In this document: positions 3,428-62,859 of the stretch, one piece after another | Position numbering within the stretch: the stretch's first letter is position 1 | Layout: each line of letters opens with the position of its first letter | DNA from: Pseudomonadota bacterium | GTDB taxonomy: Bacteria; Bdellovibrionota; UBA1018; CAIMNF01 | Assembly: GCA_027486675.1 (NCBI GenBank) | Contig: JAIXOQ010000017.1 | Span: forward strand, 123,986-187,985 | Length of the DNA stretch: 64,000 nucleotides | Reading direction: 5' to 3' | The notes under the pieces: model-generated | What the model was told of the DNA's origin: nothing | Seen by the model: only the letters and a program-made list of their open reading frames with translations | Databases searched by the model: none | Translations under genes and position numbers: made by a program

Positions 3428-4450
3428 ATGATGAATCAAAAGACATCCGTTCTTAGCTGCAAAACAGACCGCTTCCCGCTGAATGACGTTGAGCTTCTGC
3501 ACGCCACATTTGCTCTCTCCCGCATCGAGCAACGTGCGACCGCGACATGGGTCGCTCATCTGGAAGAAGTGGACCGGCGAAAAGCTTACACGTTACTTTC
3601 TTACCCAAGTCTCTTTGAATATTTAAGGAAGGAACTGGGATATTCTGAATCTTCCGCCTATGAACGCATCAGTGCCATGCGGCTTGCCAGACAGAATGAA
3701 AAGGCAAAACAGATGATCGAATCCGGCAGTCTCACTTTGACGGGGGCGACGCAGATTCAGCGCTTCATCAAAGAAGAGAAATCGGCTGGAAATGAGATGA
3801 ATCAAGAACAACAGAACGACCTACTGGCTGCGATCGCTGGAAAGTCAAAGAGAGAGACTGAGAAGTTTTTGTTATCTCAGTCCTCTGCGCCTGAAGTACC
3901 CCGGCTTAAAGAATCCACCCGCGTCGCAACACCCACACATACTGAGGTGAAGTTTTTCTTAGATGAAGATGGGATGAATCTACTCAACCGAGCGCGCGAA
4001 TTGATACGGGCAGATTCTACGACCGATCTTTTCACCCAAGCTCTGAGGGTGCTGATCGAAAAGAAAGAACGCAGCCTAGGGAAGATGGAGTCTCAGAAGA
4101 CAGACAACAAAGTAGAAGCGAGCGCCGATTCAAAATCCCGGCCGGTCGGAAAAATGCCCGTGAGAGAGAACTCGTCTCAGCCAGAATCATTCTCCATATC
4201 TCGTTTTATCCCTCTCCACGTGAAGGGACGGATTCATGCGAGATCCGGCGGCCAGTGTGAATACGTCTCGCCGGTCACAAAGACGCGCTGCCACTCCCGT
4301 GCTCACTTACAAGTGGATCACCAGACGCCGCTTGCACTGGGTGGAAGGACAGAGCTCAAAAACCTTCGTCATTTGTGTCAGGCGCATAATTTAAAGGCAG
4401 CAATGGACCTGGGACTTGCACCGTATTGGAAGGGCCTCATTCGGGGGTAA
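3428..4450 (+). CDS. HNH endonuclease with a DUF222-like N-terminal domain
   Basis: C-terminal HNH motif: CEYVSPVTKTRCHSRAHLQVDHQTPLALGGRTELKNLRHLCQAHN (Cys pair, H-N-H, second Cys/His pair). The N-terminal approx. 230 aa resemble the DUF222 region of 13E12-type HNH proteins. Confidence 0.6.
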   Translation: MMNQKTSVLSCKTDRFPLNDVELLHATFALSRIEQRATATWVAHLEEVDRRKAYTLLSYPSLFEYLRKELGYSESSAYERISAMRLARQNEKAKQMIESGSLTLTGATQIQRFIKEEKSAGNEMNQEQQNDLLAAIAGKSKRETEKFLLSQSSAPEVPRLKESTRVATPTHTEVKFFLDEDGMNLLNRARELIRADSTTDLFTQALRVLIEKKERSLGKMESQKTDNKVEASADSKSRPVGKMPVRENSSQPESFSISRFIPLHVKGRIHARSGGQCEYVSPVTKTRCHSRAHLQVDHQTPLALGGRTELKNLRHLCQAHNLKAAMDLGLAPYWKGLIRG

Positions 4451-4661: not shown

Positions 4662-6089
4662 TTAAGCAGCCTTTGCACTGACAAGGGTCAACACTTCACC
4701 GGCAATTTCACCCAGCGGACGCACCTGTTCAGCGGCTTTCAGTTTAATCGCGGCCTGCGGCATTCCAAACACCACACAGCTTGCTTCGTCCTGCGCAATG
4801 GTCCGAGCGCCTTTTTGTCGCATTTGAAGTAACCCCTTCGCACCATCTGCGCCCATACCCGTAAGAATCACGCCGACAGCTTTCTTGCCAACAAGATCAG
4901 CGACCGACTGAAACAACACATCGACTGAAGGCCTATGGCGATTCACGGGTGGCGCATCCTTCACCTGCACCTGGTATCCGCTGGGTCCGCTTCCACGGAC
5001 TAGAGACATCTGAAATCCGCCAGGTGCAATGAGCACACGGTTCGGTCGACATTCGTCTCCATCAACCGCTTCCTTCACCTCAAATGCACAGAGATCATTC
5101 ATACGTTTTGCAAAGGCCAAGGAGAAGACTGCTGGAATATGCTGAACAATCACAATGGGAGGGATGCCACTTGGGAGACGGGTAAGCACCTGACGCAGAG
5201 CTTCAGTTCCACCTGTTGAAGAACCGATTGCAATGAGATTTGAAAGATTCATTGCACCCATCGCAGTCACTGGCTTTTGTAGTGCCGATTTTTGAGAAAA
5301 AGGCGTGATCGCCTTAACTTTCGCGGACGAGGCCGTTTTGACTTTCTCAACAATCAAAGGAGTCACTTCCGCAAGCTCATCTAAGGAAGGCTTTTGAATG
5401 TAGTCCACCGCACCCGCCTCTAAGGCCTGAAGGACATGGCCACTCTCCGCCATACTAATAGAACTAATCATCACCGTTGGAATCTGGAACTTAGGAAGAT
5501 AGCGTTTCAGCAGCGTAACCCCATCCATCTCAGGCATATGGATGTCTAGGGTGATCACATCAGGCTTCAATCGAGCGATCATCTCTTCAACCTGCGACGG
5601 CCGTTCTGCGCAACCGACAACATCAAGATCGACCTCAAGAATTCGAGTCAAGATATGTCGTATCGTCTTTGAGTCATCAACGATCAAAACCCTCTTCCGT
5701 TTTTCGGGGAGCATCGCCTGAGGCGCGTTTGCAGAAGCTTGTGCTTCACCTAAGCGAACCCGGCCCGAATCCGTATAGAAGTATGCTTCAAGACTTTTTG
5801 ATTCCGATTCCTTCGTTACGAACGAGACCTCAGGAAATTCTCTCCGGAAATCTGACGACAATGAGCGTACAGATGCACTCGCTCCAATAATTTTGGCTTT
5901 GACTTCCTTTTTGACCGCGATGGATTTAACACTCTTGATGAGTGCACGGAGACGATCCATCGTGCTTGCGCTCGAATCTTGAAGGACCATTCCAGCGCCA
6001 CCCACGCCACCTTCAACGTAAGCACAGACAAAGACTCCACCCTTTAACTCATACCTGAGGACCTGTACTGAAAGGGCAGGATTGGTCAT
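4662..6089 (-). CDS. cheB: Chemotaxis methylesterase CheB: CheD-like N-terminal domain, receiver domain, then catalytically intact methylesterase
   Basis: REC: LIVDDSKTIRHIL...DVITLDIHMPEMDG. Methylesterase: GSSTGGTEAL...IVIVQHIP...LTGMGADGAKG...DEASCVVFGMP (Ser/His/Asp triad motifs present). The N-terminal approx. 130 aa align to CheD (GGVFVCAYVEGGVGGAGMVLQDS...KAKIIGASASV...FYTDSGRVRL). Confidence 0.85.
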   Translation of the reverse strand: MTNPALSVQVLRYELKGGVFVCAYVEGGVGGAGMVLQDSSASTMDRLRALIKSVKSIAVKKEVKAKIIGASASVRSLSSDFRREFPEVSFVTKESESKSLEAYFYTDSGRVRLGEAQASANAPQAMLPEKRKRVLIVDDSKTIRHILTRILEVDLDVVGCAERPSQVEEMIARLKPDVITLDIHMPEMDGVTLLKRYLPKFQIPTVMISSISMAESGHVLQALEAGAVDYIQKPSLDELAEVTPLIVEKVKTASSAKVKAITPFSQKSALQKPVTAMGAMNLSNLIAIGSSTGGTEALRQVLTRLPSGIPPIVIVQHIPAVFSLAFAKRMNDLCAFEVKEAVDGDECRPNRVLIAPGGFQMSLVRGSGPSGYQVQVKDAPPVNRHRPSVDVLFQSVADLVGKKAVGVILTGMGADGAKGLLQMRQKGARTIAQDEASCVVFGMPQAAIKLKAAEQVRPLGEIAGEVLTLVSAKAA

Positions 6090-7990
6090 TTTTTGCCCTT
6101 AAATAGCTCATCGTCTGAATGATAGATAAAGCTTGTATATGGAACGAAATGAAGTGCTTTCGCACGAATCATTTTATACGTTCCATCGAGTGCCTTCTGA
6201 CTTCCGATGTCCTCTAAGATAAGACCGGCTTTCGGAAGCTGCTCAAGCTTGCTTAAGACATCTTTACCCACACTTGCAAAAACAAGTGTAGAAACATTCT
6301 TTCCAATAGCAAGCAACTTGAGTGTGCTGAAGGCTGTATCAAAATCTCCAATATAAAACGTCCCAAGCTTGAAATCCTTGATCCCGTCTACTATTGGACT
6401 CAGTGGAACGGGAGAGACGGGCTTTAGCCCTTCGACTACTTTTGGGAGAATTGTGCTTGGACCATGCACAAGAAAGACGGTTGCAGGCTGTGGACCATTG
6501 CACTGTTTTAGAATGGCAGTGCATTTTTCCTTGTCCCCTATGCCTAAGACAACTACCCGAAGCTGATCTTCACTCCATTTACGGTCAGGTTGCTTCTGAA
6601 AGGACCGATCAAGCTCAAGGGCTCTAGCCGTTTGAGAAGGATCAGGTTTCAGTGCACACCTCAGTTTGAGCTTAATTTCATCGGCCTTATCCGCAAGATT
6701 CGCGAGCGTCGGTTTCTCTATGTAGTCCCTGGCCCCTAATTCAAGAGTTCGCATCCCGACTCCTGAGTCCTCACGGGCCGCGGAACTCAGCATCACAACA
6801 GGAGGATGGCTTGCGGAAAAGTTTTTTTCCAGGTACTCCACTCCGTTTTGCTCTGGCATATGAATATCTAAAGTCATGACATCAATAGGTGTCTTATTTA
6901 GGAATTCTGCCGCCTCAATTCCATTCTTTGCCGTCCCAACAATTTCAAACCCTGCCTCTTTCGTGAGCACCTTCTTGAGAAGTGCCAAGATAGTAGGCGA
7001 ATCATCCACACAAAGAACGCGAATATTTTTCTCAGGCGCTGCTATAGAAATAGATTGCTGACTTGCCGTCGGGATTGCCTTCCCCGCCGGAGTGGGGACC
7101 AAAGATTCCTTTGGCTTGCTACTAGTTGCACCTATATGGCCATAAATGGATGGGCCAATATATTTCACTGGAAGATCGAGGCCGTTTAAGGTCTCTGACA
7201 TGCCGGTAAAGAGGATACCGCCTGGATGCAGACATTGAAGTAGCCCTTTTGAGACTTCCTTAATTTGATCATGAGTAAAATAGATAAAGACGTTCCTACA
7301 AAAGATGAGATCAAACTTCCTACCGCGTACTTTTGACAAATCAAACAAATTGATCACGTCAAATTTACATTTTAATTTTATAGAATCTTTTGCTTTAACA
7401 AACGCTGCAATGTTTCCGGTCCCCCTCGAAAAGTGGGAGCCTACATAAATAGAGGGGGCTTCCTTGATCTCATCCCATCGATAGACACCATTCTTTGCGA
7501 TTGCAACCGAATCTGGATCCACATCACTCCCATAGATTTCAAAGTCCATGGACGGGTCAATCGTCTTCAGGTGGTAGGAAAGAAACATCGAAATTGAATA
7601 CGCCTCTTGCCCACGACTTGAGGCAGCGGACCAAACAGAGATTTTTCGATCGCCCCTGGCTTTGGCCTCCGCTACAACTTTCGCCAAACCGGTCCGCTCT
7701 AGATATTCAAAATGGGAAAACTCCCGAAAGAAGAAGGTGTGATGCGTTGTGAGCAAAGAAACAAGCGCTGCACCTTCTGACTCTTTGTTTTGATTGAGAT
7801 GCTCTCGATAAGCCTGTGGAGTGGCAAGCCCTAGGTCGAGCATGCGTTTTCCAATTCGGGCCGAAACCATCGCTTTTTGCTTGTCACCGAGTTGAATGCC
7901 CGCGATTTTTTGCACAATGCTTGACACATGTGCAATGAGATCGTCATCCAAAGCAAGACCACTGATTTGCTGAGCGGTACTACTACCCAT
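6086..7990 (-). CDS. cheR: Chemotaxis methyltransferase CheR fused to a receiver domain and a degenerate CheB-like domain
   Basis: N-terminal CheR (TTHHTFFFREFSHFEYL; SAM-MTase VWSAASSRGQEAYSISMFL). Central REC (VLCVDDSPTILALL...DVMTLDIHMPEQNG). C-terminal approx. 190 aa CheB-like, but GxSTGG is replaced by GIGDKEK and GMGxDG by SVGKDV. Overlaps cheB by ATGA. Confidence 0.85.
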   Translation of the reverse strand: MGSSTAQQISGLALDDDLIAHVSSIVQKIAGIQLGDKQKAMVSARIGKRMLDLGLATPQAYREHLNQNKESEGAALVSLLTTHHTFFFREFSHFEYLERTGLAKVVAEAKARGDRKISVWSAASSRGQEAYSISMFLSYHLKTIDPSMDFEIYGSDVDPDSVAIAKNGVYRWDEIKEAPSIYVGSHFSRGTGNIAAFVKAKDSIKLKCKFDVINLFDLSKVRGRKFDLIFCRNVFIYFTHDQIKEVSKGLLQCLHPGGILFTGMSETLNGLDLPVKYIGPSIYGHIGATSSKPKESLVPTPAGKAIPTASQQSISIAAPEKNIRVLCVDDSPTILALLKKVLTKEAGFEIVGTAKNGIEAAEFLNKTPIDVMTLDIHMPEQNGVEYLEKNFSASHPPVVMLSSAAREDSGVGMRTLELGARDYIEKPTLANLADKADEIKLKLRCALKPDPSQTARALELDRSFQKQPDRKWSEDQLRVVVLGIGDKEKCTAILKQCNGPQPATVFLVHGPSTILPKVVEGLKPVSPVPLSPIVDGIKDFKLGTFYIGDFDTAFSTLKLLAIGKNVSTLVFASVGKDVLSKLEQLPKAGLILEDIGSQKALDGTYKMIRAKALHFVPYTSFIYHSDDELFKGKK

Positions 7991-8011
7991 GTATAGATTT
8001 TCCCTTTTTTC

Positions 8012-8524
8012 TTAAGCTGCTTGACGGGTTGCCTGGGCCTTTTTTGCAGTTGATTGGTCGTCGACATCTATGGCTTTCGCCATGTCTAAAAGTAAAACGA
8101 GTTTCTTGTCTTGCCGTGTTACTCCAATGATGTAGTCACTGGATTTATTACTCTGAATGTCGGGACGATCACTAATGTCTGATTCCCTAAGCGGCAACAC
8201 ACTGTTCACAGAGTTCACAACGATCCCGATACAAAGAGGTGCCAAATCACAAATGATCACTGCTGTCTCAGTATTCTGGTCCGCCTTAATCCCAAATTTC
8301 AGTCTGAGGTCGATCACAGAAATGACCTGGCCCCGAAGATTCATAATCCCGAGAAAGTGGGAAGGTGTGTATGGGATACGCGTGATATCTGGATAGGCTA
8401 TGACCTCCTTCACAGAGAGCAAAGGAACGGCGTAGGCTTCAGTTCCTAAAGAAAACTCTAAGAACCTCCTGAGTTCACCTGACTTTTCCTCAACCTGCTT
8501 CATACCCTCTTTGTCTTTAATCAT
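8012..8524 (-). CDS. cheW: Chemotaxis coupling protein CheW
   Basis: 170 aa with CheW-like domain (YAVPLLSVKEVIAYPDITRIPYTPSHFLGIMNLRGQVISVIDLR). Start overlaps the cheA stop (ATGA). Confidence 0.85.
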   Translation of the reverse strand: MIKDKEGMKQVEEKSGELRRFLEFSLGTEAYAVPLLSVKEVIAYPDITRIPYTPSHFLGIMNLRGQVISVIDLRLKFGIKADQNTETAVIICDLAPLCIGIVVNSVNSVLPLRESDISDRPDIQSNKSSDYIIGVTRQDKKLVLLLDMAKAIDVDDQSTAKKAQATRQAA

Positions 8525-10383
8525 GCGACTCCCCTTAGACTTTGTGTTGTTCGATCACGGCCCTGCGTACGATTCACGAGTTCTGCCACATCTAGAATCA
8601 GCGCTGCTTTTCCATCCCCAAGAATCGCTCCACCGGTAATTCCTTTAAGACTACGAATTTCAGCACCCAGCTGCTTAATGACCACCTGTTGCTGCCCGAT
8701 AATATCGTCAACCAGCACCGAAAATGCGTGATCGCCTGAGCGAACTACGATCGCAATCGCGGTCGATGGATCGATTGGTTTTACCTTTTGCCCTAGAAGG
8801 GTGCCTAACCGGTGCAAGGGTAGATTTTCCCCTCTTAGGCCAAGCACTTCTCCCATTCCAGTCACATAAGAGACATCTTCTTTTGCAGGTTGCAAAGATT
8901 CATGCACTTGGGTGATCGGAATGATGTACTTTTCTGTCCCTGCCTGAACGACCATGCCATCTATAATTGCGAGTGTCAGAGGGAGCAGAATCTTAAAACA
9001 GGTTCCCTTACCGAGCTCGGTCTGCAAAAGCACTTCACCGTGTAATATTTTCTCGACATTCGTTTTTACAACGTCCATCCCAACACCTCGGCCAGATATT
9101 TCTGTCACCTGACTGTGAGTTGAAAATCCAGGGGCAAAAACAAGGGCGTGACATTCAGCCTCTGTCAGCTTTTGCTCTGCTCGGATGATCCCTTTTTCAA
9201 TTGCTTTTTGGCGAAGCTTCTCAGCATTGAGGCCCTTCCCGTCATCCCTAATTTCTAAAACGATCTGATTCCCCTGGTGGTAAGCGTTGAGCGTAATGCG
9301 GCCAGCTTTTGACTTGCCCATCTGTTCACGTTCCTCGCCTGATTCGATTCCATGATCCACGGCATTCCTAATCAAATGGACTAAAGGATCGCCTAAATGT
9401 TCTACGACGGTTTTATCTAGCTCGGTCTCATCTCCTATGAGCTCAAGATGGATCTCTTTTCCAAGTATCTTAGACGTATCCCGAACTATGCGTTGCATCT
9501 TTTGAAATGTTTGCTTCAAAGGAACCATACGCAGGCTCATCGAAATGTCCTGAATATCCTTAGTAATTTTTGCAAGCTGACCAATTGTTTTCTGAACGAG
9601 TGGTGACTCAATATGCACTCGCTGCTGATCAAGCACCGTCTGCATAATCACAAGCTCGCCCACGTTATTCAGTAAGGTTTCAAGCCGCTTCAGGCTCACA
9701 CGAATATTTTCGTCCTGCACCTGTTGTGGCGGTTGAGCGGGACCTGCTTGGGGAGCTTGAACTGGAGCAGATACTGCTGCCGCTGGCGGGATTACTCGGG
9801 GCTCTACCTGGGAAGCTTCCGGTGTGGCTATGGGCTCAGCTTCGATGGATTCTCTCACTAAGGGGATGAGCTCCGCAAAATGTTCAGTCTCTTCCTCGGT
9901 CTTCACCTCAAAAGCGTCGGCAGATGGGTATTCAAGATCTACAGGAGAAGACGAGACCTCGAGTGGCTCCTCAGAGATAGCCTCGAGAACTACCGTCTTG
10001 CCACTCAATTGGGCGCGGATCTCCTCTAAGAGGGCTACGCTGTCCATCTTGGCTTCAAAATCGGCTTTTAAAGCATCAACCCAAACCCGCAGGTGGTCGT
10101 TGCACTGAAGAAGCAAACTCACGGTCGCAGTGTGGATCTGAAGTTCACGATTCTTTAATTTTAAAAGGAGGGATTCTAGTTCGTGGGTGAACTCACCCAT
10201 TTGGATAAATCCTACACCCCGTGCACTGCCTTTCAGATTGTGAGCAAGACGAAATATTTTCTCTAAGATAGAAGGGTCTTCTGAACGTGTTTCAAGGTCC
10301 AAGAAGCACTGTTCCGTGTCAGCGAGTAGCTGTGCCGCCTCATCTAGAAACCCAGCTTTTAATTCTCTTTCAAAGTCATCCAT
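8521..10383 (-). CDS. cheA: Chemotaxis histidine kinase CheA
   Basis: Hpt domain (FRLAHNLKGSARGVGF). HATPase_c (HLIRNAVDHGIE...GRGVGMDVV). C-terminal CheW-like regulatory domain. No fused receiver. Confidence 0.9.
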   Translation of the reverse strand: MDDFERELKAGFLDEAAQLLADTEQCFLDLETRSEDPSILEKIFRLAHNLKGSARGVGFIQMGEFTHELESLLLKLKNRELQIHTATVSLLLQCNDHLRVWVDALKADFEAKMDSVALLEEIRAQLSGKTVVLEAISEEPLEVSSSPVDLEYPSADAFEVKTEEETEHFAELIPLVRESIEAEPIATPEASQVEPRVIPPAAAVSAPVQAPQAGPAQPPQQVQDENIRVSLKRLETLLNNVGELVIMQTVLDQQRVHIESPLVQKTIGQLAKITKDIQDISMSLRMVPLKQTFQKMQRIVRDTSKILGKEIHLELIGDETELDKTVVEHLGDPLVHLIRNAVDHGIESGEEREQMGKSKAGRITLNAYHQGNQIVLEIRDDGKGLNAEKLRQKAIEKGIIRAEQKLTEAECHALVFAPGFSTHSQVTEISGRGVGMDVVKTNVEKILHGEVLLQTELGKGTCFKILLPLTLAIIDGMVVQAGTEKYIIPITQVHESLQPAKEDVSYVTGMGEVLGLRGENLPLHRLGTLLGQKVKPIDPSTAIAIVVRSGDHAFSVLVDDIIGQQQVVIKQLGAEIRSLKGITGGAILGDGKAALILDVAELVNRTQGRDRTTQSLRGVA

Positions 10384-10454
10384 ACCTGCACACCCTTACT
10401 CAAGTTTTCGGAAGCTTGAATCATTTACTTAAGAAGCCATTGATCTGAGGCCGT

Positions 10455-12671
10455 TTAAACGTCTTCGAAGCGGGGATCATCTTTTGACGGGACTTCAAAG
10501 TTTGCGCTCTTACCGGCTCCTACGGCTTCTTTATGCTCTGAAGGCACTGATTTCTCGGGCTGATTAGTTTTTGACGCTCGTCTTTTGGCAATAGGAACCA
10601 CATTCTCTTTCGAGTCACCACTACTGGTCGACTTAGGCGCATCGGTCTCGCTAGAACCGGAGGCGGCCTGCTGGGCGTCAAAACTCCCATTGATCACGAA
10701 GAACAGATCCCGCACCATTTGGCGAAGTTCTTCGGCCTGGGTGCTCAGCGACTCGGCTGAAGATGCTGTGCTTTGGGAAATTGCAGAGTTCTGCTGCGTG
10801 ACTTGGTCGAGCTGATTCATGGCTTTATTGATCTCGGCTACCCCCTGGGCTTGCTCCTGGGATGCTGATGAAATCTCGCCCACCATGCCATCCACTTCTT
10901 GAACAGTAGAGAGAATCTTGTTCAATACCTCTCCACACCGCGCTGCCACCTGCATTCCAAGGCCAACCTTCTCTTTGCTCTCGACTACGAGGCGTTCAAC
11001 CTCAGTTCTAGTCTCTGCTACAATCCCTTCTACCTTCTGGATGCTGGATTCGAGCATAGTAGAAATTTCTTTTGCCGCATTCCCACTCATTTGAGCAAGA
11101 TTCCCGACCTCCTCAGCAACTACAGCAAATCCCTTTCCATGCTCACCAGCGCGTGCCGCTTCGACAGAGGCATTAAAAGAGAGAAGCTTCGTCTGAAATA
11201 CGATGTCATTGATGACTTTTGTCTTGTTCCCAATCTCGCTAATGACTTTCACGATTTCACCAATTTGACGATTTCGCTCCTCGATCTGATTCATGATTGC
11301 TGTATTGCTGTCGCTGATGTCAGCAATCGATTTTGACATTTCTTGTACCGCCTCTTGCCCCTCTTCGGCAGTGGTTCGGCTCGTCTGTGAAACTTTCTGA
11401 GACTGACTTGCATTATCGGCACTCATTTTAACCATGGAACTGACTTCATCAATCGAAGCTGCAGTTTCTTGGATGGCCGCTGCCTGTTCTACGACTGCTT
11501 CTGAAAGACCTGTGCTTGAGCGGGAGATCTGAGAAGCTGCGTTAAATACCTCGTTTGATCCATGCGATAAACGACCCGCAAGACCTGACAGGCTCTTTGA
11601 GAGGGAAATCGCAAAGAAGTAAGAGATCAGCGATGCAAGTGCAATAACCACCGCAAAGATCCCGTAAAATATATTTTGAGCTTGGATGAGCGCGCTCATC
11701 GCCTCTTTCTGTGAATCCTTAACGAGCACAGACCACCCTATGCTATCTACAAACTTCCCACCACTGACCGGTACAAATCCAGCAATCTGCAAGTCGCCTG
11801 TTTTTGTGTTTTTCTCAAGAAGGGCTCCAGACTTCTTTGCTGATAAAGCCGCCCATGCTGCGCCAGTTTCAGTTTCTTTGAGTAGTCTGTTCCAGTCGTA
11901 CTTCGAATCACTCAGAACCTCTATCTTCGGGTCAGACGAGTACTCAAAGAGCACTGTCCCGTCATGGCGAACCATAGAAAGCTCAGAGCTTCCGAATCCA
12001 CTTTTCTTTAACCCTGCATAGAGCTCTTTAAAGGCGACTTCAAACCAACGTGAACCTGCACGGTTGGTGATCACTCCAATCACCTTGCCACTTGCGTTTT
12101 TGACCGCTGCACTGAAGCTTGATCCTAAACGATCTGAACCAAAAACCTTGCTAGTGTACGGATCAACGTGCACGTCTTCCACAAAAGTTCCTGCAAAAGC
12201 TTTCGCCTTATCTTCTGTGAATTTCCCCTCCATCACAGCTTTAAACCATGGGGCCTCTGAATAATTCTGTTCATAGAGAGGTTTTACAGCGATGTCTTCG
12301 CCACCAGGTGTTTTGCTGGAAGTAGCGACCAGGTGTCCTTTTGCATCGACCAACATGATCAGATCGTAGATGCCATAAAGTGCGCTCCAAGAGTTGAGCA
12401 TGTCTACGATCGATTGCTGGCTGCTCGCTTGAATTGCCGGGCTAATCGCAAAGGCCTGAACGTCGCCGTAACGCTCAAAGAACTGTGCGCCGATAGCATC
12501 ACTTAAGCTTCTGGCATAGGCTTCAAAGCTATCGAGCTGTGCCTTTTCTTGCGTGCCCACAATGTGCTTTAACACCCCCACAGAGGCGGCACCCAGAAGC
12601 ACCGTGATCCCCATGGAAAGAGCGATGAGTTTAAATTTAAGAGATTTGCCATTTTTCATTTGCTTGTTCAT
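10455..12671 (-). CDS. Methyl-accepting chemotaxis protein with periplasmic Cache-type sensor domain
   Basis: ORF 10455..12764. Likely start at internal Met ([26 protein letters not shown]). TM1, periplasmic Cache-like region, TM2, HAMP, MCP signalling domain ([44 protein letters not shown]). Confidence 0.85.
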
Positions 12672-12735
12672 CCGTGATTGCTCATCGGCAGGGCACAAAG
12701 AAAATGTAAAAAAATTAATGTAGACTAGCCGCAGC

Positions 12736-13518
12736 ATGACTTTAGCAGGCAAAACCACCGCCAATATTCCTTCACCCCCACTGCTTCTGATCGGAAAAGG
12801 AAAGCTAGCTCAGCACATGCAAACGTACTGCAAGCTCATGAATGCACCATTTCTGTGGCACAAAGACGCAAGAAGTCTAAACGATGACTTCAGCGCATTG
12901 TGTCAGACTGAGGTCGGGCGACTTAGACCGACCATGGCCTGGATACTGGTCTCGGATCGCGCAGTTCCTCTTGTCACAAGGGGAGTTCGCGCACTAGCCC
13001 CGCATTTAAAACTTTTTCACGCATCAGGTGCGCTTAAGGTGGAGGGCGCCACAGCTCTCCATCCCCTATTCACTTTTGGTCCCGACCCCTATCCACTTCA
13101 GATCTATCAGTCCTTCCCCCTCACATTGATCGGCAGAAGATGGGCAGATGAAGAAATACTCCTGCAATTTTGCTCTACCTACTTTTCTAAAAATCAAAGA
13201 CTTGAGTTCCATGAAGACCATCAGGCCTTTTACCACGCTCTCTGCGTGATGGTTTCTAACTTCCCTCAGATCCTTTGGGATATGAGCGGGACTGCACTTC
13301 AAGATAAAACTGGCGTGAATAGAACCGTCTTTACACCGATCATTCTGCAAGCAGCTGCGAATTTTGCACAGTCTGCAGACCGTGCACTGACCGGCCCTTT
13401 GGCTAGAGGTGATCAAGAGACGATAACTAAGAATTTAAGCGCGCTCGGTGAAACACCACTTCGCGGACTTTATGAAGCATTCCTTAAGAGTTACTCAAAA
13501 CCTTCGGAGGACACGTAG
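12736..13518 (+). CDS. Rossmann-fold / DUF2520-like putative oxidoreductase
   Basis: N-terminal dinucleotide-binding-like motif ([13 protein letters not shown]). C-terminal region contains a TGPLARGD motif reminiscent of DUF2520. Divergent from the che operon. Confidence 0.35.
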
Positions 13519-60357: not shown

Positions 60358-61230
60358 TTAAGGTCGTTGTCGTTCAGGAATCAGCACCGTAAAAGTACTT
60401 CCACGCCCTAAAAAACTATCCACTAAGATCTCTCCGCCTAGTTTTTCCAAGATTGCCCTCGAAGAGGAAAGACCCAAGCCAGTTCCTTGCCCTTTGGGCT
60501 TTGTCGTAAAGAAGGGCTTAAAGAGCTCCTTTAGATTTTCGTCACTAATTCCAACCCCATTATCTGCAATCGCTACCCTGACAAATTTTTTTTCTAAGCT
60601 AGTCCGGATCACAATGCGTCCGCGTTTTTCAATTGCATGAGCCGCGTTGATCAAAAGACTCATGAGCACCTGCAGTAACGCGCCTGTATCAGTGATCATT
60701 TTGGGCACTACTCCAAACTCTTTGACTACCTCACACTTGTACTTTAATTCATTTGCAGCCACTCGAAGTGCCGCCTCAATACACTCATGAATGTCCGTTT
60801 CCTGAGTGGTCTCAGTGGAAACATTTGTAAAGACCTTGAGGCTTCGGATTGTTTCTGATATTCGGCAAACACCAATTAAGCACTCCTCTGCAAGTATGCT
60901 TTGATCCTTAAGAACGAAGTTAAAGTCCGGATCGTTCAGGAGGACCTGGACGCCATGAAGTCTTGTGCTGGTCGCATTCGTACCCTCTTTACCCAGGTCT
61001 GCTACTAAAGTCCGCACTTCGCCCACAAATTGCAGCATCTTATCCTGATAGATCTTGAGCGTCTCTAGATTGGACTGAACATAACCCAGTGGATTGTTGA
61101 TCTCGTGCGCGACACCTGCTGCGATCATGCCGATGGAAGCAAGTTTTTCAGACTGAATGAGCTGCTGCTGGGAGGCGATGAGGTGAAACTCATCCTTCTG
61201 GTCTAGCTTCTTGGATCGGCTTTGCGGCAT
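60358..61230 (-). CDS. Soluble sensor histidine kinase (HisKA + HATPase_c, no sensor domain)
   Basis: H-box (MIAAGVAHEINNPLGYV). N/G boxes (NAAHAI...DNGVGI...GTGLGLS). No TM segment. Confidence 0.8.
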   Translation of the reverse strand: MPQSRSKKLDQKDEFHLIASQQQLIQSEKLASIGMIAAGVAHEINNPLGYVQSNLETLKIYQDKMLQFVGEVRTLVADLGKEGTNATSTRLHGVQVLLNDPDFNFVLKDQSILAEECLIGVCRISETIRSLKVFTNVSTETTQETDIHECIEAALRVAANELKYKCEVVKEFGVVPKMITDTGALLQVLMSLLINAAHAIEKRGRIVIRTSLEKKFVRVAIADNGVGISDENLKELFKPFFTTKPKGQGTGLGLSSSRAILEKLGGEILVDSFLGRGSTFTVLIPERQRP

Positions 61231-61647
61231 TTATGCTGCCACCCTCTCATCATTGAGCGCCAGGAGATGCTCCACTGTTTGAGCAAACCGATCTAGGTGA
61301 AAGGGTTTTGGAAGAAAGGGCGGACACTCCCTAGCATTCTTCTCTTTCATCAAACTGAGAAATGACTCCGTGCCCATCCCTGACATCAGCAAAAAGGGAA
61401 TTCCGCTGCTTTGAATTGCAGGATGCTCCCACAATTCAAGGCCGAATCTCAGATTCGGGAGAAAGTAGTCGCAGATGATCAAATTGGGACGATTCGCCTG
61501 CAGGTACTCAAAGCTATCTTCAAGGCTTCCCACACACTCGACCCGAGCATGGGGGGCAATCGTACGAATCGCACGCTTCATAGAACTCCACAGAAGCGTT
61601 GAATCCTCAACCACAAGAATCGTCACTGCGTTCGAAGTGTTTTCCAT
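61231..61647 (-). CDS. Single-domain response regulator (receiver)
   Basis: ILVVEDS, phospho-acceptor context LIICDYFLP, LMSGMG, LPKP. 138 aa. Confidence 0.65.
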   Translation of the reverse strand: MENTSNAVTILVVEDSTLLWSSMKRAIRTIAPHARVECVGSLEDSFEYLQANRPNLIICDYFLPNLRFGLELWEHPAIQSSGIPFLLMSGMGTESFLSLMKEKNARECPPFLPKPFHLDRFAQTVEHLLALNDERVAA

Positions 61648-61655
61648 AATACTCC

Positions 61656-62258
61656 TTATATTGTATGAACCAGACCATCCAAGGCCTTAAGCAGCTCTTC
61701 TCTTTGAAAAGGTTTTGCGACAAAACCCGCAGCACCTAAACTCATCGCCTCCTGAACTCGACCCGAAACATCTCCGGAAACAATCATCACTTTAGTCTTT
61801 TTTTGCAGCAGATCATTCCTGCTCAGGGCCTTCAAAACCTCTATCCCGTCCATACCGGCCATGTGGATATCTAAAGTCATCACGTCCGGAGAAAACGAAG
61901 CGATCTGAAGACCGGCTTCAAACCCTCCTAACGCAATTTGAGTTTCATATCCCGCTAAGCGGAGGATCCGCTCTAATGAATGCGCAAACGGCAGATCATC
62001 CTCAACGATCAAGACTCTTCGCGGGCCAGACACCTTTTTTGCCGCTAACCATTCGTCGGGCAAGGGCATGCCATTCTGTTGCATAAACCGAATGAGGCTT
62101 TCGACGCTGATCCTATGATCACCGCGACCGGGCAACCGAGTGGCCTCGAGCTGCCCCCGCTGAACCCACCGAATCACCGTACGAAAGTTAACACCACAGT
62201 AGCGAGCGGCCTGCCCCGTCGTTAGGAATTGGTCGAGATGATCTGTCCCATTTGCCAC
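61656..62258 (-). CDS. Response regulator with N-terminal MerR/excisionase-type HTH and C-terminal receiver
   Basis: HTH (LTTGQAARYCGVNFRTVIRWVQRGQLEA). REC (RVLIVEDDLPFAHSL...DVMTLDIHMAGMDG...IVSGDV...KP). Confidence 0.7.
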   Translation of the reverse strand: MANGTDHLDQFLTTGQAARYCGVNFRTVIRWVQRGQLEATRLPGRGDHRISVESLIRFMQQNGMPLPDEWLAAKKVSGPRRVLIVEDDLPFAHSLERILRLAGYETQIALGGFEAGLQIASFSPDVMTLDIHMAGMDGIEVLKALSRNDLLQKKTKVMIVSGDVSGRVQEAMSLGAAGFVAKPFQREELLKALDGLVHTI

Positions 62259-62475
62259 CCCTTTAGAGTAGTCCTACAGAACCTAATTGGTCAAGCTTGA
62301 GAACCTGACTTTCATGACAATGCAAGAACATGAGTTACTCTTAACATTATTGCCCAATAATTTCAATTACTTAGCATATTTGTCTGAAATTAAGGCTTGG
62401 TCGGTTTGACAGGTTAATGCACTTCGTTATATTATTATTTTAGTCAGGAATAGCGGTCACTCGCTAGAAAAGGAA

Positions 62476-62859
62476 ATGGACATGAAGGCCAGAATACTTC
62501 TCATCGACGACAGCAAGATACTCCGCACCTTGCTCGGAAAAATTGTAGAGCGTGCGGGCCATGAAGTCGCAGGATACGGCGAGGATGGCGTCCAAGGGCT
62601 ATCTCTCTTCCTCTCTACCAAACCTGATTTCACTTTAATGGATGTCACCATGCCCAACATGAGCGGCAAGGAATGCCTTGAGGCCATCCTGAAACACTCA
62701 CCTCACGCAAAGGTCATCATGATCTCGGGCCTTGCGGATCCAGAGATCGAAAAAGATTGTCTCAGACTTGGAGCAAAGGCCTTTATCTCCAAATCTGATC
62801 TCACGAGCTCTGGTGCCCTTGAAAAGCAACTGAACGAAGTCTTGAAGAGATTTCAGTAA
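62476..62859 (+). CDS. CheY-like single-domain response regulator
   Basis: ILLIDDSKILRTLL, DFTLMDVTMPNMSG, MISGL, ISKS. 127 aa. Confidence 0.8.
   Translation: MDMKARILLIDDSKILRTLLGKIVERAGHEVAGYGEDGVQGLSLFLSTKPDFTLMDVTMPNMSGKECLEAILKHSPHAKVIMISGLADPEIEKDCLRLGAKAFISKSDLTSSGALEKQLNEVLKRFQ

Follow-up and report, generated by a model that had tools for sequence, protein, structure and literature searches.

Why should a chemosensory operon encode two adaptation enzymes that each carry an additional domain resembling an enzyme of the same pathway? The question is raised by a che operon in a 64,000-nucleotide stretch of Bdellovibrionota DNA (contig JAIXOQ010000017.1 of assembly GCA_027486675.1, positions 123,986 to 187,985 of the forward strand; hereafter the window), which comes from a predatory-bacterium-like genome. 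On the minus strand, positions 4662-12764 of the window hold five tightly packed genes encoding a methyl-accepting chemotaxis protein (MCP), CheA, CheW, a CheR fusion and CheB. A first-pass annotation, made from the sequence alone, had described a 634-aa CheR followed by a receiver and a CheB-like C-terminal domain, and next to it a 475-aa CheB with a CheD-like N-terminus. The coordinates and lengths given for both genes are exact, and profile, phmmer, hhalign and Foldseek comparisons agree that the C-terminal domain of the CheR fusion is CheB-like. We refer to this C-terminal domain as X, to the N-terminal domain of CheB as N, and to the two receivers as REC1 and REC2. As set out below, X is a CheB-like domain predicted to be catalytically dead, N is predicted to be a CheD homologue without its catalytic residues, and both are conserved across the phylum. 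The two genes and their parts are:

6086..7990, minus strand: gene for the 634-aa CheR-REC1-X fusion (open reading frame (ORF) call and Pfam)
7175..7924, minus strand: CheR_N and S-adenosylmethionine-dependent CheR domain, residues 23-272 (Pfam CheR, 141.7 bits)
6707..7018, minus strand: REC1, a CheB-type receiver, residues 325-428 (Pfam Response_reg, E 2.5e-20)
6089..6565, minus strand: X, degenerate CheB methylesterase-like domain, residues ~476-634, ~160 aa (profile, single-sequence and fold searches)
4662..6089, minus strand: gene for the 475-aa N-REC2-CheB protein (ORF call; NCBIfam CheB model PRK00742, 387.9 bits against a cut-off of 293)
5745..6068, minus strand: N, CheD-like domain predicted to be catalytically dead, residues ~8-115 (fold and profile comparison)
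5373..5690, minus strand: REC2, the CheB receiver, residues 134-239, phospho-acceptor D182 (Pfam, E 4e-21)
4695..5234, minus strand: CheB methylesterase domain, predicted active, residues 286-465 (Pfam CheB_methylest, 213.8 bits)

The two genes overlap at ATGA, where the CheR fusion stops and cheB starts, and the gene boundary lies exactly between X and N.

In the 634-aa protein, Pfam recognised CheR_N (residues 23-69, 31.3 bits), CheR (84-272) and a receiver (325-428); residues 440-634 gave no Pfam match, even when scanned alone at E up to 10. A profile of X made from 20 orthologues aligned with the catalytic domains of the operon CheB proteins in hhalign (probability 90.7%, E 1.2e-6, 79 columns), and its three best matches in a PDB search were the CheB structures 1chd, 1a2o and 6ymz (E 0.005-0.012). 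The same profile also matched the genuine esterase domain, in register, in ~55 other proteins. When REC1 and X were searched together as a single sequence with phmmer, the top three PDB matches were CheB, ahead of all CheY structures, and the alignment to 6ymz (query 4-219 to CheB 9-225, E 1.1e-21) ran from the receiver through into the esterase domain. Full-length NCBIfam CheB models aligned to residues 321-511/531 of the CheR fusion, covering the receiver, the linker and the start of the esterase domain. The AlphaFold2 model of X (predicted local distance difference test (pLDDT) 78.9, predicted template-modelling score (pTM) 0.78) returned CheB structures as its best eight Foldseek matches (E 2.8e-5 to 7e-4, template-modelling (TM) score 0.61-0.68), followed by generic Rossmann-like proteins at a TM score of ~0.35. 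Scored directly against Pfam CheB_methylest (PF01339), X did not reach the gathering threshold and gave no match at E up to 10. By homology and fold, X is a CheB-like domain, with a similarity far beyond what chance would give.

The catalytic motifs of CheB had been described as lost in X. This holds for the nucleophile, since the residues at CheB Ser164/His190/Asp286 are Gly483, His509 and Asp577 in X, and it holds for the triad as a whole, as Ser, His and Asp occur together in none of the 27 X family members (0/27). The loss is less complete than described in the window protein itself, where His509 and Asp577 still occupy their positions, but these residues are not conserved in the relatives. 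Of the 27 sequences, 15 have G and six have S at the Ser position, 11 have E and five have H at the His position, and Asp is found at the Asp position only in the three closest relatives of the window. Gly483 and His509 were placed by alignments, and Asp577 was equated with Asp286 by manual secondary-structure correspondence. The global mode of hhalign set 'LILEDIG' of X against 'ILTGMG' of CheB, and our preferred manual mapping equates 'VSTLVFASVGKD' with 'VGVILTGMGADG'; under either mapping the Asp is not conserved across the X family. Profile searches and residue-level alignment therefore placed no intact Ser-His-Asp triad in the C-terminal domain of the CheR fusion. X is ~35 residues shorter than CheB, with a beta-hairpin segment apparently deleted in the manual mapping, and it shares 18-33% identity with its orthologues. 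Its conserved motifs are R478, P502, E593-D594 and P617-x-T619-S620. With the nucleophile gone and the whole triad lost across the family, X is predicted to be catalytically dead as a CheB.

The remainder of the CheR fusion appears intact. The CheR domain matches Salmonella CheR (1af7) over its full length (residues 7-283 against 5-271, E 2.7e-35), and the methyltransferase is predicted to be intact. REC1 has the phospho-acceptor D375 together with D329, D330, S402 and K426, and these positions are kept (with S or T at 402) in 20/20 orthologue sequences. The best receiver matches of REC1 are NCBIfam CheB models, CheB structures outrank CheY structures, and REC1 is 44% identical to REC2. Since an intact CheB-type REC1 and linker are followed by a degenerate X, we infer that CheR has acquired by fusion an entire CheB paralogue, the enzymatic half of which is dead.

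The adjoining CheB had been called catalytically intact, and our analysis bears this out. Pfam found a receiver (134-239) and CheB_methylest (286-465) in the 475-aa protein. The esterase triad S291, H317 and D415 is invariant in 18/18 sequences, D182 and K233 of REC2 are conserved in the same number (18/18), and the protein scores far above the cut-off of the full-length CheB model listed above. It is predicted to be a working methylesterase. Residues 1-130 had no Pfam match, even when scanned alone at E up to 10. An AlphaFold2 model of residues 1-120 (pLDDT 85.2, pTM 0.80) has the topology b-b-b-a-b-a-b-b-b, and its first Foldseek match was CheD of Thermotoga maritima (2f9z_C, probability 1.00, TM score 0.70). 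Structure prediction thus led from the X model to CheB and from the N model to CheD, and the model suggests that N has a CheD/CNF1-like deamidase fold. Profiles of N aligned with CheD (2f9z, its sequence checked against the PDB) in hhalign over 106-107 collinear columns (E 1.3e-4 to 3e-4, probability 39-54%). The N profile did not find CheD in a PDB search, which gave only noise (MglB, SBDS; E above 0.2). When the N profile was run with HMMER exhaustively against 1.84 billion representative proteins, only 23 matched at E <= 1e-3. All but one are N-REC-CheB proteins, fusions, or short N-only proteins or fragments; the exception, P0135 (154 aa), was reached at a library-wide E of 2.4e-4. By Pfam, P0135 is a genuine CheD (56.9 bits) with its Cys and His retained.

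The CheD-like N-terminus had been proposed to lack the catalytic Cys and His. Aligned from CheD to N, Cys27 corresponds to Gly18, His44 to Gly33/Met34/Val35 and Thr21 to Arg12; in T. maritima CheD (2f9z), Cys27 and His44, together with Thr21, are the catalytic residues. The alignment of 18 N domains has no invariant or nearly invariant column, which excludes a conserved active site, and identity to orthologues is 10-25%. An absence of CheD homology was not what we found, as fold and hhalign comparisons both support such homology. Together, the alignments and the model suggest that N is a CheD homologue without the catalytic Cys, His and Thr. P0135 was the sole canonical CheD among ten short N-profile matches scanned against Pfam; it is encoded at L029/L030 8001-8465 (GCA_002256935.1), beside a single-domain receiver gene and a CheW fragment, and may be close to the ancestor of N.

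Relatives were collected from one genome per species. A full-length relative of CheR-REC1-X, at 39-47% identity, was present at 19 loci, all in Bdellovibrionota metagenome-assembled genomes (Bdellovibrionia, Oligoflexia, Pseudobdellovibrionaceae and Bacteriovoracaceae). The 19 loci have the gene order CheA-CheW-(MCP)-CheR fusion-CheB in common, and the comparison of related che operons recovered this order and both domains. X and N are both present in the orthologues, and this arrangement is conserved throughout the phylum Bdellovibrionota. At least 25 distinct species-level sequences, from several families, have retained both domains as intact units that fold confidently. Word-index homologue searches with X alone or N alone gave no match, although the full-length proteins of the window were in the collection searched, where they carried no name (P0001, P0141).

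The first-pass annotation had regarded this as an uncommon architecture. It is not a one-off but a member of a Bdellovibrionota-wide series that includes single-chain CheR-REC-REC-CheB proteins. The series was drawn up with a concatenated CheR-fusion and CheB query, and the resulting list is dominated by 800-aa fusions, with the CheB orthologues of two-gene loci absent from it. Five architectures were recognised:

(a) two genes, CheR-REC1-X and N-REC2-CheB: the window, P0002, P0003 and the two-gene loci among L001-L019
(b) one chain of ~1,100-1,180 aa, CheR-REC1-X-N-REC2-CheB: P0004, P0005, P0006, P0077 (L017 1686-5012) and P0104
(c) one chain of ~800 aa, CheR-REC1-REC2-CheB, with neither X nor N: the great majority, for example L023 10001-12466 and L024 10001-12403
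(d) one chain with X only: P0013
(e) one chain with N only: P0037 and P0059

The chains of architecture b are the two genes of the window joined in frame. The 800-aa proteins of architecture c are the commonest relatives, found in Bdellovibrio-like genomes (in the range P0007-P0120), and ~110 of the 120 relatives listed have neither X nor N. Where a source name was returned, the 800-aa relatives were called 'CheB' or 'CheR' and not fusions, and the NCBI name on the examples is 'chemotaxis-specific protein-glutamate methyltransferase CheB'. X and N are both present in every two-gene form with both genes visible (17 loci and the window), and every form lacking X or N is a single chain. In a midpoint-rooted neighbour-joining tree of the CheR and REC1 part, the domain-less forms grouped in a single clade, the N-only forms branched close to its base, and the X-bearing forms were all on the other side. 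This layout suggests that the presence of X and N is ancestral and that they were lost stepwise. In addition, one locus (L028) has a free-standing 131-aa N-domain gene on the plus strand at 481-876 (P0127), encoding a CheD-like protein that appears catalytically dead; the gene is convergent to an N-REC-CheB gene, which itself follows an X-bearing CheR fragment. The short N-only proteins P0128, P0136 and P0138 may resemble P0127.

A second conserved feature of these loci lies on the receptor. After a long low-complexity linker, the operon MCP ends in the following sequence:

10458..10478, minus strand: extreme C-terminal tail of the MCP, DPRFEDV-COOH

At least 11 related loci have operon-linked MCPs with a tail of the form P-S-x-x-D-P-R-F-[EKQ]-[DE]-[VIL]-COOH. 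It is borne at L001, L003, L005, L006, L009, L010, L015-L019 and L024-L027. In 10 operon-linked MCPs it reads DPRF[EKQV][DE][VIL], with V also allowed at the [EKQ] position, and L017 has the variant NPDFEDV. No further ORF of >=70-80 aa, either in the window or among loci L001-L022, fitted the pattern. Receptor tethers of the NWETF or GWEEF type at the C-terminus of an MCP bind CheR and CheB. The tail described here is like them in its placement at the very end of the protein behind a long flexible linker, its aromatic residue at position 2, its acidic character and its conservation in orthologous receptors, and unlike them in having an aliphatic V/I/L instead of Phe at position 5 and a conserved D-P prefix. 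The NWETF-type pentapeptide is defined by aromatic residues at positions 2 and 5 (PMC7390727); RFEDV of the window has Phe at position 2 and Val at position 5 (I/L in relatives), and so falls outside that definition. DPRFEDV is a candidate new receptor tether. We considered X or N as its receptor; this is weakened by the presence of similar tails on MCPs beside X-only, N-only and domain-less fusions, that is, in clusters without X, without N or without both. The same distribution makes a shared part, such as the CheR beta-subdomain, a more likely partner than X or N. The beta-subdomain of the fusion aligns gap-free to the pentapeptide-binding Salmonella CheR. The MCP tail probably anchors the complex via a part common to all variants, most likely this CheR beta-subdomain.

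How might these parts work together? We propose that the products of the locus make up the adaptation module of a Bdellovibrionota chemosensory system and that the locus derives from a former cheR - cheB' - cheD' - cheB array. Phosphorylated CheA would phosphorylate both REC1 and REC2, so that the kinase would feed back on both methylation and demethylation. X and N would serve as non-catalytic docking modules that, in the version we prefer, keep CheR and CheB together at the adaptation region of the receptor. In the two-gene forms they would replace the covalent link of the single-chain relatives. REC1 would pack on X in the manner of the CheB receiver on its esterase domain, and the docking would thereby respond to phosphorylation. 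Taken as a whole, this is the account towards which we lean, with moderate confidence. The first-pass annotation had likewise suggested that the pseudo-enzyme domains may tether CheR and CheB to receptors or to each other and that methylation may be gated by phosphorylation; the conserved REC1 residues and the retention of both X and N in every two-gene form seen are consistent with this. The regulatory part of the account draws on both receivers having kept all their phospho-acceptor residues, so that CheA probably governs the methylation step too, and not demethylation alone. The textbook CheR is constitutive, with kinase feedback confined to CheB; a phosphorylatable receiver conserved on CheR throughout the phylum argues for feedback on methylation too. 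As to the origin of N, we take the adjacent gene order in the P. aeruginosa Che2 cluster to be cheR-cheD-cheB. The adaptation proteins named in F7-type clusters are CheR, CheD and CheB (PMC9855816, PMC10107281). By analogy with this content and order, a cheD gene between cheR and cheB is a plausible source of N.

Several observations weigh against the proposed holding role of X and N. The X-only and N-only proteins demonstrate that neither domain is strictly dependent on its counterpart, and in covalent fusions, where both also occur, they would not be needed to hold the enzymes together. That split forms keep both domains could reflect nothing more than common descent, and the tree bearing on their history is star-like and without support values. 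N is without any invariant residue, an unusual state for an interface that binds specifically. The sequence support for N as a CheD is modest, with an hhalign probability of 39-54%, no Pfam match and a PDB profile search without CheD, and the AlphaFold2 models of X and N come from shallow alignments of 8-9 sequences. A stronger form of the proposal is that X and N make a specific heterodimer joining CheR and CheB into one bifunctional complex, with phosphorylation of REC1 and REC2 opening or closing the latch. If this were so, the kinase would act as a reciprocal gate for the methylation and demethylation of one and the same receptor, unlike in Escherichia coli with its unregulated CheR. We regard this specific form as doubtful.

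The same domains could act without touching each other. CheB and CheD share a target, the methylation-site helices of MCPs, and X and N might be independent readers of the receptor, X tethering CheR and N tethering CheB. Each would have retained the substrate-binding groove of its parent, and the modification state of the adaptation region might also be sensed. That both parents act on the same receptor segment fits this alternative, as do the X-only (P0013) and N-only (P0037, P0059) proteins, the free-standing N gene adjoining the cluster at L028 and the enhancement of receptor methylation by P. aeruginosa CheD (PMC10107281). Nevertheless, no conserved groove residues were identified, N having no invariant column, the receptors already carry a conserved C-terminal candidate tether, and ~110 of the 120 relatives listed do without X and N. 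We consider independent reading possible, and less probable than the docking proposal.

Could X and N instead have no specific function? As remnants of CheB duplication and CheD fusion, folded and serving only as spacers while under gradual deletion, they would be expected to diverge as strongly as they do (identity to orthologues of 18-33% for X and 10-25% for N), to lose their catalytic residues, to be absent from most relatives and to leave N-only forms near the base of the domain-less clade, which suggests stepwise loss. Neutral remnants would, however, not survive such deep divergence, and both domains are intact and confidently folding in at least 25 species-level sequences of several families, with R478, P502, E593-D594 and P617-x-T619-S620 conserved in X; relics are thus improbable. 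The conserved X motifs could also be read as new function, with X a neo-functionalised enzyme or small-molecule sensor using residues such as E593/D594 or T619/S620, since the near-invariant ED and P-x-TS motifs lie outside the CheB triad. In the manual mapping, however, the ED motif falls at the conserved Q-D/N-E strand end of CheB, fitting a structural role, and no similarity of X to another enzyme family was found, the next folds being Rossmann-like at a TM score of ~0.35. We think this very improbable. The docking proposal, in which X and N hold CheR and CheB at the receptor, remains the one we prefer.

The other three genes of the operon are:

10455..12764, minus strand: MCP, the first gene of the operon (Pfam MCPsignal 457-656, E 5e-37; weak dCache_1)
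8521..10383, minus strand: CheA histidine kinase (Pfam Hpt, dimerisation, HATPase_c and CheW-like domains)
8012..8524, minus strand: CheW coupling protein (Pfam CheW, E 2e-34)

The MCP ORF is listed from a TTG at 12764, and an ATG at ~12671 (MNKQMKNGK...) is the likelier start, because the orthologue alignments begin only at residue 25-32. Pfam found neither a receiver nor a P2 domain in the operon CheA; P2 is the response-regulator-binding domain, and residues ~130-225, between the Hpt and dimerisation domains, are a long acidic, Pro/Ala-rich linker. A scan of the che operon for promoters and terminators gave counts at or below shuffle expectation and was uninformative. The claim that the operon has no free CheY is correct for the window, where none was found in the operon and the nearest receiver ORFs lie at 61.6-62.9 kb. 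It does not extend to the family, as several related clusters have an adjoining single-domain, CheY-like receiver gene. The only other receiver domains of the window belong to an ordinary two-component set at 60361-62856:

60361-61230, minus strand: HisKA/HATPase kinase
61659-62273, minus strand: HTH_17/MerR-type regulator with a C-terminal receiver
62410-62856, plus strand: single-domain receiver

Directly downstream of cheB, on the opposite strand, is a 340-aa ORF (3428-4450, plus strand) whose sole match is a weak C-terminal HNH endonuclease, at E 4e-4 and below the Pfam cut-off. It is followed by a 102-aa ORF without a family match.

For researchers of chemotaxis and of pseudo-enzymes, X and N are of interest as clear cases of pseudo-enzymes recruited from their own pathway and missed by standard domain models. 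The natural series of split, fused, X-only, N-only and domain-less forms, together with the candidate tether, makes the function of each part directly testable. The analysis also corrects the annotation of the 800-aa relatives, since the proteins named 'CheB' or 'CheR' are fusions.

How does this module compare with known systems? REC1, its linker and X are collinear with the receiver, linker and esterase of CheB (1a2o, 6ymz), with the same fold and an apparently phosphorylatable type of receiver. In contrast to CheB, X is ~35 residues shorter, is without the Ser nucleophile and a conserved triad, fails Pfam and sits C-terminal to CheR. N differs from CheD (T. maritima 2f9z; PF03975) in that Thr21, Cys27 and His44 are replaced, in being ~40 residues shorter and undetected by Pfam, and in its fusion to the N-terminus of CheB. 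The F7 clusters (P. aeruginosa Che2, Shewanella Che1, Vibrio Che2/3) likewise comprise an MCP, CheA, CheW, CheR, a CheD-type unit and CheB (PMC9855816, PMC10107281), a likeness of gene content to published descriptions and not of class-specific sequence signatures. Their MCPs also have a C-terminal tether (PMC7698151), whereas their CheD is separate and active and their CheR has no receiver or CheB-like domain.

Fusions that extend CheR are represented by the CheB-CheR-PAS-kinase architecture, 'CheBR', which we take to be KEGG K13924, and by the CheR-TPR proteins of the FrzF type, in which CheR has an extra regulatory or docking domain (PMC3447774). Both resemble the fusion described here in that CheR has such a domain or is fused to CheB. 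They differ in having TPR, or CheB before CheR with PAS and histidine kinase domains, and in having neither a receiver between CheR and a dead esterase nor a CheD-like domain. A full-text literature search found no description of CheR-REC-pseudo-CheB, pseudo-CheD-REC-CheB or single-chain CheR-REC-REC-CheB proteins. The parts all belong to known families and the pathway is ordinary chemoreceptor adaptation, so the module is not categorically new. With the 800-aa CheR-REC-REC-CheB proteins of the Bdellovibrio type it shares the same order of CheR, REC1, REC2 and CheB, with CheA and CheW upstream; those relatives are one polypeptide without X and N, whereas the module of the window is made from two genes and has both pseudo-enzyme domains.

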